Below are positions 32,701 through 38,700 of a DNA stretch of 64,000 nucleotides, piece after piece (position 1 is the stretch's first letter; each line of letters begins with the position of its first letter). The DNA is from Acidobacteriota bacterium (GTDB lineage Bacteria > Acidobacteriota > UBA6911 > JACQSX01), in the NCBI GenBank assembly GCA_036507075.1, contig DASXQR010000097.1, positions 29,391 to 93,390 on the forward strand. The letters run 5' to 3'. Made by a program: the position numbers.

Positions 32701-35700
32701 GAAAGTGCCGGCTCTCGATTCATCTCTGTTTCGGGAACTACAAGGGCAGAGCGGTGGGCTTGCGTCGCTACGCGCCCATGTTCCCGGCATTTCTGGAAAT
32801 GAACGTGGATGAAATTCACGTCGAAATGGCGAGCCGTGAATTTGCCGAGATTGAGCTAATCGGCCCGATCAGCGACCGAAGAGACGTGGCGGTGGGAATC
32901 GTCGATGTAAAGAGCTATTACATCGAAACCGAAGAAGACATAGCCCATCGCGTGCGGCTCTGCCTGCGTCACGCGCCGCCGCAGCGTGTCTCCTTTGCGC
33001 CTGACTGCGGCCTCAGCCAGACAGCGCGGTGGGCTGCACGGATCAAACTGAAGAACATGGTAGCCGGCGTAAGGCGGGTGCGGGAGGAATTGGGGGGCTA
33101 GCGATGGAAGGATGGAGGGATGGAGGGATGGAGGGATGGAGAGATGGAGGGATGGAGAGATGGAGAGATGGAGGGATGGAGCGATGGAGAGATGGAGAGA
33201 TGGAGAGATGGAGGGATTGCCCTCCTGTTCCTCCATCTCTCAGTCCCTCCATCCCTCTTTCCCTCAGTCCCTCCATCCCTCAATCCCTCAATCCCTCAGT
33301 CCCTTCATCTACCGTCCAGCGCTCGCCGCAGCGCAGGAGCTTGTGCGGTTGCCGCAGCCGCTCGGCTTCGGCTACGAATTCGTCAGGCGACGCGGTGTTG
33401 AACTGAAACATCTCATAGTGGCACGGGATGACCAGCCCGGCCCCCATGCTTTTGGCGAGAGCGGCGGCTTCAGGTCCGGTCAGATTTCCAGCGACCCGGC
33501 GCGCCCGGGAGCGTCCATTGATCGGAAGCAGCGCCACAGTGACGTTATAACCGCGCAGTCTTTCCGCCAATCCGTCGTAATCAACGGTGTCGCCGCTGTG
33601 ATAGACCGTCCAGCACCCGAATCGAATGACATAGCCGAGAAACCGGCAGCGCCCCTGTTCGTCGCGTTGAATTTCCTCGTGGGCGGAAGCGACGCCAATG
33701 AAACGAAATGGTCCGACGTGCACCATCAGGCTGTCATCAATGCCCAGCAGCGCGTCCGCTGAAATTCCCAGGCGCTGCGCCGCAAAATCACGGTTTGCGC
33801 TGGGGACGATCATCTGCGCAGCCGGATTTTTCCGCAAGATTGGGACCACCGTTTCTGCGTCCAGATGGTCCGAATGATTGTGGCTGGAGCTGATCACTTC
33901 GATGAAGTCCAGCCGGTCGGGGGCTACGACACGCGCCGTCATTCTCACATGCGGCTTGTCGGTGCCTGCGTATTTCCGGGTAAGTGAGTCAGAGAGGTAA
34001 GGATCAATCAGAAGGTGGTGGCACTGCCACCGGATCAAGAATCCGCTCTGGCCCAGCCACCAGAGATGAAAAACATCCTGATTCTTCTGCGCTCCCTTCA
34101 CGTCGGCCAGAAACTGATCATCCTTCAAAACGGGTTGTATCATGGGAGTTGACCACGGGATTGAGCACGAATTATCACGAATTTCACGAATTTCACGAAG
34201 CTATTTGGAATTTTACGAACTTAACTCAAAAGATTCGTGAAATTCGTGTCATTCGTGCAAATTCGTGATCAACTCAAGGAACGGCTTTCCCCACGATTTC
34301 ATTCGCGCTTCCAGCTTTTCCGTGCAGTCGCAATCGCAGCACGCCCATGGCTCTGTTCCGTTCTCATCAAGACACTGGCGGCGATCGTGGGCATCCTGGA
34401 TCTTCACCAGATCGAAATACTCCTCCCAGTACGGGCGCTCCTCCTCGAGCGGCGTCCAGCAGAAGCACACTTCCAGCCAGTGCACAGAGCCGTCATCGAG
34501 GACCCGCGCCTGAAACATGTCGCGCACATATTCATCGCCGGCGATGGAACCTTTTCCGAGCGCTCCGGATTCAATCGCATCCCGCAGAGCCTTCTCTTTG
34601 CCGGGTTTCAGCCTCGCTCGAACAAGATAACGCATCCAAATATTCTAGTCCCCACAGAGCCGCAACCGAAAGCCTGGATAAACCAAAAACTTCACCGCAA
34701 AGAACGCTAAGAACGCAAAGATAGCGCGGTGTAACGGCCTGGAACTTAAAGCATGAAGGCAACGCAACAAAAACAACATGCAACCTTTATTGGCCTTCAT
34801 GCTTTAAGTTCCAGGCCGTTACATCGCGCTATTCTTCGCGTTCTTGGCGCTCTTCGCGGTTAATGCTTTGAATCATCCAAGCTTCCGGTCGTGGCTCTGT
34901 GGGGGCATGCACCAATTCCCTATTCGGCATGATTGCTTCCTGGCTCGTAGCGCCAGGCGGTTTTGTGACGGGCGCCTTCGGCAAATCGGGTGTCGACGTA
35001 TTCGTCAAATTCAATCTTGCGATTGAGCACGCCGGTTTCAATCATCAGATCGCGCACCAGATCAAAATCGGGCTTGCGCGGCGACAGCGGCGTGTACATC
35101 ACGCGATCCAGGGGGTTTGTCAATGCCCAGCGCAGCAGCGCAGGATTCTGGCGGTAATAGAACCTCCCCACAAAATCAGCGGCGTGTTCGCGGTAAGGAC
35201 GTCCCTTCTCCAGCCACAGTCCCGAGCGGGCGATCCCGTCGACAAGTACCTGCACGGCTTCCGGCCGGTGATCGATCATATCCTGGCGTACCACCAGGAC
35301 GCAGGACATGTAGTCGGGCCAATACTGCCGCGCGTGGAACAGCACTTTTCCAAAGCCCCCCATCTCGGCCTGTGACGGGAAGGGTTCGCCCATCGAGAAA
35401 GCATCAATGGCGCCGGCTGCCAACGCGCCCGCCACATCGGGCGGCGCCATTTCGACCATTTTGATGTCTCCCGGCTTCATTCCGAAATGTTTAAGCACCC
35501 GGAAAACGATCAGGCGCTCATCGGAAAAACGACTGGGAATGGCGATGGTGCGTCCCTTCAGGTCGGGGAATGTCTTGACCGGTCCGTCTTTTCGCACCAC
35601 CACGGCGCTTCCGTAACGATGTCCCAGATAGACAATGCGGATCGGCACACCCTGCGACCGCAGGGCGATGGCCATCGGCGCGACCATAAATGCCGCCTGC

Positions 35701-38700
35701 ATTTTATTGGAAATCAGCGCTTCCTTGATTTCAGGGAAGCCCTGAAACAATCTCGGGATAAACAAGTTTCCCGAGGCAGAATAGGCGGAGATATAGTCGG
35801 TTACCGGGCATGCCAGGTGTCAGGTTACCGGGATGTAAGCGACGTTCAGCTTTCGCCGGTCCTCAGGCAATCGGTCGTTCAACAGCACCGACCAGTTGAG
35901 ATTGAGATAAAAGTGCGTCGCTGTGATGATCACCAGCCAGGCAAAAATCCCCGCAACGATTCTTCTCGTGACGCTCATAGGAAGTTCCTCCTTTTGGAAA
36001 GCAGTAGGCGGAAGGCAGGAGGCAGAAGGCAGGGCAAACTAGCCGAACCGCGCACGTCAGCAAGCGGACTCTCTCAGGTAACGGCGTTACTTGTAAACTC
36101 TCGGCCTCCTAGGCCAAACTTTCCGCATGCAAAGCCAGTAGTGTTACTTTGGAGTGTCCGCTTGCTGACGCGCGCGGTTCGGCTGGCACCGCCTTCTGCC
36201 TTCCGCCTTCCGCTTTCTGCCTCCTACCTCCTGCCTTCCGCTTTCTGCCTCCTGCCTCCTGCCTCCTGCCTCCTGCCTCCCACTTTCTGCCTCCTGCCTT
36301 CCGCCTTCCGAGGCGCCTAGTCGGCCCGAAAGCCCCATCGCACGGCCTTAAACTTTTCGGTACGACGTATCAGAAGATCCAGGCACAACCCGATCAGGCC
36401 GATCAGCAGCATGCCTGAGACAACAAGGTCGTATCTCTTTCCGGCGTTGCGCGCATCAATGATCAGGTAACCCAGGCCTGAATCCACCGCAATCATCTCG
36501 GCAGCCACCACCACCAGCCATGCGATTCCAAGCGCAATACGCAATCCTGTCAGAATCCTGGGAAGCAAAGCCGGAAAGACGACCCGGCGAAACAGCGCCG
36601 CTGGCGAAAGCCCGAAATTACGTCCGGCGTGCAGGTACATCGGCGGAAGATTTCGAACTCCGTTCATGGTCGACACCACCACCGGAAAAAAGGCCGCAAG
36701 CAGGATCAAAAATGCAGGAGCAACGTCACTCACTCCAAACCAGATGATGGCAAGCGGCATCCATGCCAGCGGGCTGATGGGACGCATCATCTGAATTACC
36801 GGATTTACCGCGGCTGCCAGCGCCGGGTACCAGCCAAGAATAATGCCCATGGGCACACCCAGGCACACAGCCAAAGTGTAGCCGACGGCAACGCGCAGGA
36901 GAGAGTCGAGCATGTAGGACCATAACAACCCTTTGCGGGACAGCTCCAAGAGGCCGCGCAGCACCTCAGCGGGCGAAGGGAAGATTGTGGTGCCGCTCGT
37001 GCGAACCCCGTAATGCCAGACCAGAAGGAGCACTACAGTTGCCCCGACAGGCAGAGCAATCGGCTGCCAGCGTTTGTCAAAAAGCGTCATATAGAACTTT
37101 GCAAAAAGCCGTAAACGTCCAGGTGCACGGCTTTTTTGGTTGCCGCCTACGGGCCGGGCTGTCGTTCTGCGGTGAATGCCCTTTAGTTCGCACAGGTTTA
37201 AACCTGGTGCGCCAGGCCGATCTCGGAAAAAAGGCTGTCGCGCAACTCCAGGTAGCGCATCGCACTGATATCTCTCGGATGCTCAATGTCGATGTCGACA
37301 ATGCGACGAATTCGAGCCGGCCGCGCGCTCATGACCACAACGCGATCGGCAAGCTGCACGGATTCTTCAATGTCATGCGTCACAAAGAGGATGGTCTTTT
37401 TTTCCGCTTGCCAGATGCGCAAAAGCTCACCGCGCATGATCAGCCGGGTGATGGAGTCGAGCGCTCCGAAAGGTTCATCAAGATAAAGGACGTCGGGATT
37501 GACGGCCAGAGCGCGGGCCACCTCCACGCGCTGCTTCATTCCCCCGGAAAGTTCCTGCGGATAGGCATGTTCGAAACCCTGCAGGCCCACCAGCTTCACG
37601 TAATGGGCGATCCTTTGGACCTTTTCTTCGCGTGAGACATTGAACAGGCCAAAACCGATGTTCCCTTCCACAGTCAGCCAGGGGAACACTCCCCGCTCCT
37701 GAAACACAAAAATGCGGCGTGAATCCGGCTCTCGTACAACTTCGCCGTCAATTGCGACTTCGCCTTCAGTCGGAGGGATGAAACCTCCGACGATATTCAA
37801 CAGCGTCGTTTTCCCGCAGCCGGACGGTCCGAGAAGGCAAACAAACTCGCCCTCCCTAATATCCAGGTTCAAGTTCTTCAGCACGTCCACTTGCTTCCCA
37901 TCGGAAGAAAAAGTCATGCTGAGGTTTCGAATTTCAACTTTTGTCCTGACAGAGGGCATGATCAGCGCCGTCGCAGTCTTTACTGTCATGCGTTAGTGTA
38001 GCCCCATCGAAGTATTTTCAGAGTTTCCAGCTTTCTCATCATGACATCGAGCAGCAAACCGATGAAGCCTATCAGGACCATTCCGGCAACGACCAGGTCA
38101 TAGCGGTTACCGGCGTTCCTGGAATCAATGATCAGAAAGCCGAGCCCGGAATTCACGGCAATCATCTCGGCGGCTACCACAACCAGCCACGCAATGCCGA
38201 GGGTGATGCGCAGGGCGACGATCAACTGCGGCATGACGGCGGGATAAATCACCTCTCGAATCAGCCTTGCCGGGGATAACCCGAAGTTCCGGCCGATATT
38301 AAGATGGATCGCTTCGATGCTGCGAACTGCATTCATGGCAGCCACGGTCAGCGGCAAGAACGAGGCGAGAAAAATCAGGAATATAGCGGCCACATCTCCT
38401 ACACCGAACCAGAGAATTGAAATCGGGGTCCAGGCCAGCGGTGAAATGGGCCGGAGCACCTGGATCAAGGGATTAAAGGTCCATTCGCCGCGCCGAAACC
38501 AGCCCAGAATAAGACCGAATGGAATCGCTGTGATTACGGCCAGCAGATAACCCCACGTCACGCGAAACAAGGAAGCTACCACATACTTGAAAAGCAGACC
38601 TCTCTGGACCAAATCAACCAGGCCTTTGACGACCTGCCAGGGATCAGGAATCAGCGTCGATTTTTCCCACTGCACGGCGACTTGCCAACAGATCACCAAA

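Follow-up and report, generated by a model that had tools for sequence, protein, structure and literature searches.

The closest described relatives of the protein analysed here are ABC substrate-binding proteins of three kinds. According to the accessible text of its description (10.1101/2022.07.06.499078), SaoX (NF040735), an additional binding protein of the SAO system, is an NMT1-like ABC substrate-binding protein of which selenocysteine (Sec)-containing forms exist, with database entries likewise split at a TGA; its Sec, part of a CC/TU motif around residue 192, is confined to one species, and the protein is found in anaerobes within a nine-gene locus. The second, PDB 3UN6, is the ligand-binding component of a Staphylococcus aureus ABC importer with zinc. 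The accessible parts of PMC13592312 describe it as a zinc-binding protein of unknown function and predict a Cys/His metal site for its subgroup, and related binding proteins adjoin clade B CO dehydrogenases (PMC6344411 and PMC13592312, in the parts available). The third are the sulfonate and taurine binding proteins SsuA and TauA (TIGR01728, TIGR01729). In the portion available, the table of a 2026 review (PMC13188914) places a Sec-containing cobalamin-binding protein, BtuF (CxxU), alongside SaoX and SaoB, and is thus longer than the SaoX and SaoB alone that the initial annotation had attributed to it. The SECIS consensus model in the same source, as far as its text was accessible, sets a UGA-to-loop distance of 16-37 nt.

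We read the locus described below as a gene for a selenoprotein ABC binding protein that is decoded by a bridged SECIS and in which Sec53 is a metal ligand, and we assign this reading as a whole a probability of about 0.7. A Sec-containing binding-protein family of this kind was not found in the literature accessible to the search.

Gene, frame and transporter operon

The window, by which we mean the whole 64,000-nt stretch of DNA from a soil-dwelling member of the Acidobacteriota that was analysed, carries on its minus strand a single frame (35978..34920) of 352 codons plus TAG. Translation gave one in-frame TGA, at codon 53 (35822-35820), in the context NVAYIPVT-U-HLACPVTDYIS, as had been claimed. 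Gene calling with table 11 divides the frame, again as reported, into a 52-aa ORF (35820-35978) and a 281-aa ORF starting at TTG (34920-35765); the latter is P0082, the window's own protein in the public protein collection. When 34920-35978 was taken as an offset along the contig, the place became 5530-6588, an unrelated 731-aa ORF; the numbers are window coordinates. The features of the gene and operon are as follows.

34920..35978, minus strand: predicted selenoprotein gene, NMT1/SsuA-type ABC substrate-binding, one TGA read through (frame, Pfam NMT1_2, AlphaFold2)
35820..35822, minus strand: in-frame TGA, codon 53, read as Sec (TGA or TGC/TGT there in 80 of 80 genome loci; Sec machinery)
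35987..35993, minus strand: Shine-Dalgarno sequence AAGGAGG, strong, 8 nt ahead of the ATG at 35978 (sequence)
35901..35972, minus strand: hydrophobic N-terminal helix, residues 3-26, membrane anchor or uncleaved signal (AlphaFold2 model and sequence)
35808..35822, minus strand: motif U53-H-L-A-C57, flanked by strand 1 (residues 45-48) and by helix 56-64 (sequence and model)
36317..37090, minus strand: ABC permease (BPD_transp_1), same operon; 76 of the 80 related loci have a homologue adjoining the binding-protein gene
37198..37989, minus strand: ABC ATPase, same operon; present in 67 of 80 related loci
37986..38738, minus strand: another ABC permease, with which the operon opens; 76 of the 80 related loci have it

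The operon runs permease, ATPase, permease, binding-protein gene, as first described, and the product of the last would be a periplasmic, membrane-anchored substrate-binding protein serving this four-gene ABC importer. Its assignment as a membrane-anchored NMT1/SsuA-type ABC binding protein stands. The 352-residue read-through protein matched Pfam NMT1_2 with 93.4 bits and was modelled by AlphaFold2 with a pLDDT of 95.3. On rerunning, the NCBIfam scores were identical to those given earlier: 59.6 bits for SaoX (cut-off 300), over residues 82-247 only, and 117.8 bits for SsuA_fam (cut-off 163.5). The claimed separation from SaoX is therefore upheld by score and also by the place of the Sec, at residue 53 in a widespread family instead of near 192, and by its setting in a simple four-gene ABC operon of Acidobacteriota. 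Although fold and operon type are those of SsuA and TauA, the protein also scores under the second curated cut-off (59.2 against 304.25), and nothing points to a sulfonate cargo.

Selenocysteine and cysteine forms of the family

Among 80 genome loci of Acidobacteriota, 28 had TGA and 52 had TGC or TGT as codon 53. A search among 60 relatives found TGA at the identical codon in 4/4 orthologues, and 7 of the 79 metagenome loci parsed had TGA there, the other 72 all having Cys. The protein is 82-85% identical on either side of the codon, and the U/C-x3-C motif is invariant (80/80 loci). The window's genome contains selB (379.7 bits), selA (529.4 bits), selD (346.8 bits) and tRNA-SeC. Judged by the features on which selenoprotein genes are commonly recognised in comparisons (Sec and Cys at one codon, flanks that are conserved, Sec machinery in the genome), we infer that Sec is inserted at codon 53; the apparent stop almost certainly encodes it, and the selenoprotein claim of the initial annotation is borne out. 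The selD gene of this genome itself has a TGA.

It is extremely improbable that the gene is broken, or is two genes, one stopping at the TGA after 52 aa and the other yielding the 281-aa piece separately from its TTG. Automatic calls do split the frame, and the protein library has numerous truncated entries beginning near residue 59. Against this, the TGA occupies one codon in 37 distinct sequences, with both flanks conserved as coding sequence and the frame unchanged, and the 281-aa piece would have neither membrane anchor nor first strand, and would also lose the C/D/H position discussed below. Contigs from run X1, which may be the source sample, also match the assembly without differing letters.

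UGA read-through without SelB is improbable. In this reading the ribosome would pause at a structure 10 nt downstream, as it does at read-through or frameshift stimulators, and accept a near-cognate tRNA (for Trp, Cys or Arg), so that no selenoprotein is made. The RNA structure is large and stable, the canonical SECIS position is without a hairpin, and the spacing of the helix foot at +13 is one that we take to be close to that of recoding stimulators. The alternative at this codon, however, is always Cys, in 52/52 genome and 72/72 metagenome loci, which is the signature of Sec, and hairpin P4 (below) matches SECIS hairpins in size and in its G-containing loop. In addition, selA was detected in 28/28 TGA genomes searched and in 40/52 Cys genomes, and each of the 12 genomes without selA carries the Cys form; this co-occurrence is weak evidence because selA is common in the phylum (233/301 genomes, against 68/80 in the family, an enrichment that is not clear).

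A long-range RNA helix downstream of the UGA

With the T of the TGA numbered 0, bases +13..+38 of the Sec forms pair with +125..+151 in a three-part helix of 17 pairs, followed 3 nt later by hairpin P4.

35803..35809, minus strand: H1 5' strand GCCCGGU, +13..+19, pairs with +143..+151 (99.5% of cells paired, 28 Sec sequences)
35671..35679, minus strand: H1 3' strand, +143..+151, with an AU bulge (RNA pairing)
35794..35798, minus strand: H2 5' strand, +24..+28 (RNA pairing)
35682..35686, minus strand: H2 3' strand, +136..+140; Met codon here in 37/37 Sec forms, Ile in 101/123 Cys forms
35784..35788, minus strand: H3 5' strand CCGCC, +34..+38; 5/5 pairs in 34/37 Sec forms, at most 3/5 in 123/123 Cys forms
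35693..35697, minus strand: H3 3' strand GGCGG, +125..+129 (compensatory changes at +35/+128)
35648..35667, minus strand: hairpin P4, +155..+174, 8-bp stem, GGUC tetraloop in the window, candidate SelB-binding part (folds, alignment)

At least 16 of the 17 pairs form in 34/37 Sec forms and in 0/123 Cys forms. RNAalifold, given 28 Sec sequences, predicted the long-range helix and P4 unprompted (-34.3 kcal/mol), and a scripted fold gave -34.4 for Sec forms vs -1.3 for Cys forms. In the helix 98.5% of cells were paired (95.3% with P4 included), and 29-54% when partners were slid. In the window itself, the 183-nt RNA folds at -77 kcal/mol (z = -4.55; 0/200 shuffles equally stable), with the minimum free energy and centroid structures coinciding and both giving the helix and P4. 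Stability alone does not discriminate, since shuffles of synonymous codons gave a mean z of -0.74 for Sec and -0.53 for Cys forms. The initial annotation had conceded that no SECIS could be defined in the 60 nt after the TGA; the first 60 nt indeed lack one, but the conserved structure lies beyond the reach of such a fold.

Compensatory changes support the pairing: at +35/+128, C-G is replaced by U-A in L060 and L105 and by G-C in L062, and L058, L129 and L151, as read by eye, re-form H3 with its register shifted. Fourfold-degenerate sites inside the helix have an entropy of 0-0.56 in Sec forms (gene mean 1.19) and of 1.0-1.8 in Cys forms, and three residues track the RNA, being Ala, Met and Arg in Sec forms and Lys, Ile and Lys in Cys forms. 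As 10/17 pairs are invariant, with an RNAalifold covariation term of only -0.22, the case for the helix rests mainly on the synonymous-site constraint, one covarying pair and the register shifts. Sec sequences are not independent, because 24 of the 30 genome Sec forms make up one clade; the remaining ones branch among Cys forms.

The recoding signal is probably a split SECIS, in which the long-range helix sets a distant hairpin beside the stop codon. On this proposal the UGA would be decoded through a discontinuous element: the helix, opening 10 nt past the UGA, would seal off about 140 nt (+13..+151) and bring P4, with 7-8 bp and a small G-containing loop, to 3 nt from the helix foot. With this stretch folded away, P4 would lie roughly at the canonical site of the bacterial SECIS hairpin, where SelB could reach it while the UGA occupies the A site. 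Binding of SelB to P4 is suggested by its form. The stem is 7-8 bp and the loop 4-6 nt, as in the E. coli fdhF-type SECIS, and one of the first two loop bases is a G with G or U after it; position 2 is G in 37/37 Sec forms. In stem, loop and G, P4 conforms to the bacterial model as set out in the accessible text of PMC13188914, and its loop in the window, GGUC, is that given for the minimal E. coli element, ggttgcaggtctgcacc, in the source passages available. The stem is mostly fixed by conserved residues (AL..QG), and 6-7 of 7 pairs also occur in 48/123 Cys forms. The structure has its foot 10 nt past the UGA, compared with 11 nt for the canonical hairpin of fdhA in this genome, which starts at +14 (7 bp, loop AGUU). 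Unlike in a canonical SECIS, the loop of P4 is 159 nt from the UGA in the linear sequence, not 16-37 nt, and the folded coding stretch closed by the helix is interposed. An engineered E. coli SECIS in the 3'-UTR, far downstream, reportedly worked once RNA pairing brought the UGA close (Su, Li and Gladyshev 2005); the bridging principle would be the same, theirs being artificial and that of the window natural, conserved and within the coding sequence. We know of no natural bacterial example of a bridged SECIS.

The protein could also be a selenoprotein whose helix is unrelated to recoding, serving mRNA stability or the pace of folding, while SelB uses a weak hairpin in +16..+37 or in the enclosed domain; we regard this as unlikely. 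Bacterial SECIS elements are diverse and many are weak, a subset of them fails the model according to the accessible text of the 2026 review (PMC13188914), and Haft and Gwadz (10.1101/2022.07.06.499078), in the portion available, report that their own elements were unconfirmed by the server. Single sequences do have local hairpins, such as +47..+70 in the window, but these are not conserved: RNAalifold on 0..65 of the Sec forms found no conserved hairpin near the TGA (-0.66 kcal/mol). Moreover, the helix occurs in Sec and not in Cys forms, both in the 24-member clade and in the separate Sec forms, and it dictates three amino-acid choices, for which a role other than serving the UGA would offer no easy explanation. 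An outer helix, +7..+11 with +175..+179, was seen in the window and is not conserved.

The site around residue 53

3UN6 was the best solved relative by sequence (E 2.8e-24) and also the best fold match (Foldseek E 1.2e-27, TM 0.73/0.87); the title of the entry, cut short, ends in 'with Zin'. The two proteins have the motifs GH(R/H), PSRFS/PHRYS and CC/SC in common. In contrast to the window protein, 3UN6 has His at the aligned position of the Sec, is without Sec forms and a UxxxC motif, and comes from another phylum; the CO dehydrogenase of its relatives is absent beside the window gene. Two further residues are candidate metal ligands.

35619..35621, minus strand: codon of His120, a candidate metal ligand (31 of the 35 aligned members have His)
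35301..35303, minus strand: codon of Cys226, a candidate metal ligand (28 of the 35 aligned members have Cys)

Of the 35 aligned relatives, 33 have C, D or H as residue 53, which varies jointly with H120 and C226. The two relatives with Ser at 53 lack both of these, and His120 is otherwise missing only from P0171 and P0250. This pattern points to a metal triad like that of 3UN6 and not to a UxxxC redox pair, and U53, H120 and C226 probably form a metal-binding triad. Sec53, where the first strand ends and a helix begins, would most likely be a soft metal ligand with His120 and Cys226, possibly assisted by His54 or Cys57, although His54 is replaced by Gln in 18/80 loci. The metal would be either the cargo itself or a cofactor holding an anionic cargo. 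No conserved neighbour gene able to name the cargo was found at Sec-form loci among the 80 loci surveyed.

The initial annotation had proposed a U...C pair that binds or reduces the cargo, which the distribution of C57, kept only in the close family (at least 41% identity), does not favour. In its wider form, Sec53 as a redox or covalent-capture residue is possible, if doubtful. Sec53 might join Cys57 (i, i+4 at the helix start) in a selenenylsulfide, an S or Se compound (polysulfide, thiosulfate, selenite) being taken up by exchange, or it might be catalytic, like the active-site Cys27 of the same-fold desulfinase DszB, which ranks 37-41 among the fold matches (2DE2/2DE3, C27S mutant). The invariance of U/C-x3-C agrees with this, as do the sulfonates, taurine, nitrate or bicarbonate bound by solved relatives, TauE/SafE-type exporter genes nearby in 6/80 loci, and the statement in the accessible text of the 2026 review (PMC13188914) that a high-affinity Se uptake system is unknown. 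Most wider relatives, however, lack C57 and still have C/D/H at 53 with H120 and C226; the nearest structure contains zinc, and selA is not clearly enriched. Metal binding by Sec53 is further favoured by HMA-domain proteins, encoded 3' of the gene in 19/80 loci, exclusively those of Cys forms.

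Selenoprotein status and family assignment

The gene under study encodes an NMT1/SsuA-type ABC substrate-binding protein that we consider a member of a real, widespread and mis-annotated selenoprotein family, with a probability of about 0.9. As the initial annotation had proposed, its 352 codons form one frame, in which the only TGA is codon 53 (U53 or Sec53), and its ATG is preceded by a strong Shine-Dalgarno sequence. The sequence around this codon reads NVAYIPVT-U-HLACPVTDYIS, and the peptide across Sec53 is YIPVT-U-HLACPVTDYISAYSASGNLFIPR.

Binding-protein gene (window coordinates)
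34920-35978, minus strand: complete frame, read 35978..34920
35822-35820, minus strand: TGA, codon 53

A placement at 5530-6588, which results if the gene's position is taken as contig coordinates, was rejected since an unrelated ORF lies there; the coordinates are those of the window. Gene calling with table 11 splits the frame into a 52-aa ORF and a 281-aa ORF, the latter being present in a public protein collection as the window's own product (P0082). The TGA is spanned without differences by contigs of run X1, which may be the source sample; run X2 gave no contig spanning it, and no RNA run was listed for the gene. Among protein library matches, many cluster representatives (P0122, P0124, P0128, P0157 and others) begin at about residue 59 or stop near residue 52, and these appear to be Sec forms (homologues with TGA at codon 53) that gene callers cut at the TGA. 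Gene calling in public metagenome annotations thus fails systematically for this family. Because public data enter this gene as two ORFs and the libraries contain many truncated pieces, a model for it should be added to annotation pipelines.

A genome scan using one genome per species returned 490 confirmed relatives, and the counts that follow rest on the best 80 of these 490 loci, all from Acidobacteriota. Codon 53 is TGA in 28 of them and TGC or TGT (Cys forms) in 52, thus giving natural Sec/Cys pairs; L068 and L088 (TGA) and L099 (Cys) come from unpublished genomes, which are counted in this split, in the selA tallies and in the script counts. A metagenome scan, with search patterns that favored Cys forms, contributed 7 more distinct TGA forms and 72 with Cys (79 parsed among the best 80 of 412 loci). 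Orthologues at 81-85% identity were present in 4 of 60 relatives, all four with TGA at the same codon, and across these five genomes a protein identity of 82-85% holds over the whole frame, on both sides of the UGA, indicating coding conservation. None of the 37 distinct TGA sequences has an indel.

The window's genome (G000) holds the machinery for Sec insertion, with selB (379.7 bits), selA (529.4 bits), selD (346.8 bits) and a tRNA-SeC, and its selD itself carries an in-frame TGA. Among carriers in the best 80 of 490 loci, selA was found in 28/28 TGA genomes and 40/52 Cys genomes, the 12 genomes without detected selA all being Cys-form carriers. Because selA is common across the phylum (233 of 301 sampled genomes, versus 68 of the 80 carrier genomes), its co-occurrence is weak support for the selenoprotein reading; a link to selenium uptake based on it was rejected, as these proportions are not a clear enrichment. 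A selD gene was detected in 26 of the 27 TGA-form genomes searched and contains an in-frame TGA in 25 of the 26. The remaining one (G134, the genome of locus L134; L188) has no in-frame stop and is therefore a Cys-type or other selD.

The protein matches Pfam NMT1_2 at 93.4 bits (cut-off 24.7) and NMT1 at 67.5 bits, which together with its fold places it with the NMT1/SsuA-type (cluster F) proteins. It reached no model in NCBIfam release 20. Two candidate assignments were rejected, and the scores behind them reproduce those of the initial annotation exactly: 117.8 bits for the sulfonate-binding SsuA_fam (TIGR01728), whose cut-off is 163.5, and 59.6 bits, over residues 82-247, for SaoX (NF040735), whose cut-off is 300. 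SaoX, an earlier Sec-containing binding protein, has Sec or Cys at a CC motif near residue 192 and lies in an SAO gene neighborhood, whereas the protein described here has Sec at residue 53, and its neighbors searched comprise ABC components and unrelated genes alone.

In the available portions of the 2026 review (PMC13188914), the Haft and Gwadz preprint (bioRxiv 10.1101/2022.07.06.499078) and the deep-Sep paper, the family is not described. The initial annotation had stated that the review lists only SaoX and SaoB as Sec-containing binding proteins; both are listed in the part available, but so is a BtuF-like protein, and apart from these three that part has no NMT1, sulfonate or periplasmic entry. 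The entries that its table takes from Haft and Tolstoy 2025, as far as they stand in that part, include no binding protein. As far as these partial sources go, a widespread family of soil bacteria thus joins a very short list of Sec-containing transporter binding proteins (SaoX, SaoB, BtuF-like).

A long-range RNA structure specific to Sec forms

The initial annotation had defined no SECIS, having obtained weak folds after the TGA. This stands for the first 65 nt, where no conserved local hairpin was found (RNAalifold -0.66 kcal/mol over 0..65, with the T of TGA as 0), but a SECIS-like hairpin, P4, lies further downstream. No conserved hairpin thus places its apical loop at the 16-37 nt past the UGA that the bacterial SECIS model calls for.

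Constraint on third codon positions is locally excessive in Sec forms only. Over their 137 fourfold-degenerate sites entropy averages 1.19 (sd 0.38); at codons +5, +11, +12 and +42 to +57 it drops to 0 to 0.59, versus 1.0-1.8 at these sites in the Cys forms. Folding of the alignment accounts for both clusters of low-entropy sites by a long-range helix in three parts (H1, H2 and H3) with P4 just 3' of it.

Conserved RNA elements in Sec forms, from the alignment fold (T of TGA = 0)
H1: 5' strand +13..+19, 3' strand +143..+151
H2: 5' strand +24..+28, 3' strand +136..+140
H3: 5' strand +34..+38, 3' strand +125..+129
P4, hairpin of 7 bp: 5' strand +155..+161, 3' strand +168..+174

The script-based alignment fold reached -34.4 kcal/mol in Sec forms versus -1.3 in Cys forms, and RNAalifold returned the identical structure unprompted from the 28 public Sec sequences (-34.3 kcal/mol). 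In this 28-sequence alignment 98.5% of cells pair in the helix and 95.3% in the helix plus P4; sliding the partners by 1-3 columns as a control lowered the latter pairing to 29-54%. Minimum-energy folds of single sequences contained the helix in 26 of 30 cases, judged by eye, and P4 in 30 of 30. The window's own 183-nt RNA folds at -77 kcal/mol (z = -4.55 against dinucleotide shuffles, 0/200 as stable), and its MFE and centroid structures coincide, both showing the H1-H3 plus P4 architecture.

Three further elements were discarded. An outer helix (+7..+11 with +175..+179) occurs in the window's fold and is not conserved, one of its pairs being absent from all but 3 of the 37 Sec forms. Within the enclosed domain, a hairpin at +47..+70 is variable, and another at +90..+112 rests on residues conserved in Sec and Cys forms alike (PEIKEALIS).

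Ten of the 17 helix pairs are invariant, and pair invariance alone says nothing about selection. That the pairing is under selection is argued by changes that preserve it and by its tracking of the Sec codon. Pair +35/+128, both members of which are synonymous third positions, changes from C-G to U-A in L060 and L105 and to G-C in L062; where Ser-Arg replaces Ser-Ala (L058, L129 and L151), H3 is rebuilt, as judged by eye, with other letters in a register shifted by 1-2 bases; and the P4 loop is closed by a C-G pair in three sequences and by U-A in one. Of the 37 Sec forms, which are related to one another, 34 build 16 or more of the 17 helix pairs; none of the 123 Cys forms does so. A complete H3 likewise occurs in 34/37 Sec forms, and Cys forms reach at most 3 of its 5 pairs. 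Amino acids encoded at three of the elements also differ between the two forms.

Predominant amino acids at elements of the RNA structure
H3 5' strand: Ala in 34/37 Sec forms; Lys in 102/123 Cys forms
H2 3' strand: Met in 37/37 Sec forms; Ile in 101/123 Cys forms
P4 loop: Arg in 35/37 Sec forms; Lys in 58/123 Cys forms

On a quick, midpoint-rooted tree, whose rooting does not fix whether the ancestor was a Sec or a Cys form, there are one 24-member Sec clade and six Sec forms branching among Cys forms. All of these Sec forms keep the RNA structure, L058 only partly (12 of 17 pairs). The RNAalifold covariation term is small (-0.22), and the P4 stem is largely set by conserved residues, with 6-7 of its 7 pairs forming in 48/123 Cys forms. 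Stability relative to synonymous-codon shuffles fails to discriminate the two forms (z = -0.74 for Sec, -0.53 for Cys). Taken together, we regard this Sec-specific structure as most likely the recoding signal, a reading that we hold with fair though by no means full confidence.

P4 as a possible bridged SECIS

Both teaching and search methods take the bacterial SECIS to be a hairpin directly downstream of the UGA. The model in the 2026 review (PMC13188914) calls for a stem of 4-16 bp, a loop of 3-9 nt in which a G within the first two positions often precedes a G or U, and a distance of 16-37 nt from the UGA to the loop. P4 fits this model in stem, loop and G, and at 159 nt from the UGA in the linear sequence it lies beyond the distance range. 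Its loops are CGUGCU (20), CGGGCU (6), CGGGCG (4), CGGUCG (3), UGGUCA (2), CGGGCC and CGUGCC, with G at loop position 2 in 37/37 Sec forms. The window's loop closes to a GGUC tetraloop, the same loop as in the minimal E. coli SECIS, ggttgcaggtctgcacc (PMC3834832).

Canonical elements are present in the same organisms. In G000 the gene for the formate dehydrogenase alpha subunit has a SECIS hairpin of 7 bp, with loop AGUU, beginning 11 nt past the UGA. Hairpins of 6 bp with the same spacing were seen in six parsed selD genes, an illustrative subset of the 25 TGA-containing selD loci.

Selenoprotein genes of G000 with an in-frame TGA
C157:2583-5819: fdhA, formate dehydrogenase alpha subunit
C59:4836-5753: selD, with a hairpin at +26..+48, loop GUU

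If the domain closed by H1-H3 were looped out, the path from the UGA to the P4 loop would consist of a 10-nt spacer, a 3-nt linker and the 7-nt stem, so that the effective distance of P4 would be about 20 nt. With the UGA in the A site, the foot of H1 would lie at the mRNA entrance, and P4, which adjoins this foot, would present the SelB-binding loop; we infer that SelB could bind there and support Sec insertion. The agreement of P4 with the SECIS rules, the looped path of about 20 nt and the canonical elements in the same organisms lead us to propose a natural split bacterial SECIS, in which a hairpin about 155 nt downstream works only through a conserved long-range helix that places it at the UGA. 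We rate the odds of this specific arrangement as even. The portion of the SECIS literature available to us contains no description of helix-bridged bacterial elements.

This is the most interesting point of the analysis. An engineered precedent for a bridged SECIS was reportedly provided by Su et al. in 2005. A natural one would widen the rules for selenoprotein gene finding and would offer a design principle for engineered selenoproteins in which the SECIS lies away from the recoded site. If the proposal is true, the 16-37-nt rule of SECIS-based searches does not reflect a physical constraint, bacterial selenoprotein genes with bridged signals form a class that is being missed or mis-called, and a recoding signal shapes the coding sequence, three amino-acid choices included, as far as 50 codons away.

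Candidate metal site, operon and neighboring sequences

An AlphaFold2 model of the protein (pLDDT 95.3, pTM 0.90) has an N-terminal helix at residues 3-26 followed by a two-lobe binding-protein fold, with U53 between a strand (45-48) and a helix (56-64). The nearest solved structure by both sequence (E 2.8e-24) and fold (Foldseek E 1.2e-27, TM 0.73/0.87) is 3UN6, an ABC binding component of S. aureus whose entry title, as listed by Foldseek, reads as far as 'with Zin'. Further Foldseek matches were to TauA, SsuA, NrtA/CmpA and Thi5 and, more distantly, to the desulfinase DszB. The CO dehydrogenase papers (PMC6344411 and PMC13592312), in the parts available, treat 3UN6 as a metal-binding or zinc-binding protein without known function and, for binding proteins related to it, predict a metal site made of Cys/His.

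Across 35 aligned family members, with identities as low as 24%, 33 have C, D or H at position 53, 31 have His at 120 and 28 have Cys at 226. Both sequences with Ser at position 53 also lack His120 and Cys226. The three positions are conserved and vary together in this alignment, and in 3UN6 a His aligns with U53. The main rival reading is that U53 and C57 form a redox or covalent-capture pair. C57, like His54, is present within the close family and confined to it, His54 being replaced by Gln in 18 of the best 80 of 490 loci. This limited occurrence of C57, the C, D or H at position 53 that covaries with His120 and Cys226, and the His of 3UN6 favor the metal-ligand reading, in which Sec53 may serve as a soft ligand of a metal site in the cleft together with His120 and Cys226; judged from sequence, we put this forward tentatively, at slightly less than even odds. 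With Sec at a candidate metal-ligand position and matched natural Sec and Cys forms, the role of selenium in a binding protein becomes testable.

The gene order described in the initial annotation was recovered, with permease, ATPase and permease genes upstream on the same strand, associating the binding protein with an ABC transporter. Among the best 80 of 490 loci, permeases were found in 76 and the ATPase in 67, and this four-gene operon is the only conserved arrangement around the binding-protein gene. Sec-form loci in this set have no recurrent neighbors beyond housekeeping genes that would hint at the cargo. The window's own neighbors (an MBL-fold protein, a 128-aa Cys-rich ORF and a response regulator) were set aside as clues to the cargo since they are not conserved.

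Three kinds of neighbor recur in the best 80 loci with Cys forms only. In 19, the binding-protein gene is directly followed by a gene for an exported HMA-domain protein (CxxC motif; 24.4 bits, just below the 24.8 cut-off); a DUF169 protein, often next after it, occurs in 12; and a tryptophan-halogenase-like flavoprotein lies nearby, mostly upstream, in 12. TauE/SafE-type genes were found in 6/80. The HMA neighbor leans towards a thiophilic metal as the cargo. Many carriers of the HMA and DUF169 genes are Acidobacteriaceae and Terriglobia, and the halogenase-like group is mostly labelled Thermoanaerobaculia.

Neighbor genes in Cys-form loci
L083:5083-5388: HMA-domain protein
L076:5375-6139: DUF169 protein
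L057:100-1725: halogenase-like flavoprotein

Further sequences were noted on either side of the binding-protein gene.

Other features of the window
34249-34635, minus strand: ORF of 128 aa just past the 3' end of the binding-protein gene, with the Cys-rich stretch WACCDCDC
35997-36033, 36191-36308, 39090-39131 and 39957-40033: intergenic arrays of the 7-base unit GCCTYCY (up to 17 copies) flanking the ABC operon
36014-36082 and 36143-36211: 69-nt arms of an imperfect inverted repeat

The 128-aa ORF has no Pfam match and is absent from the best 80 of 490 related loci. Rfam searches of both strands gave only sub-threshold matches to miRNA precursors, which were dismissed as due to the intergenic inverted repeat. 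Two of the GCCTYCY arrays lie between the permease and binding-protein genes in mutually inverted orientation, at or overlapping the ends of this repeat, and the arrays and the repeat could be a dispersed repeat or small mobile element of G000.
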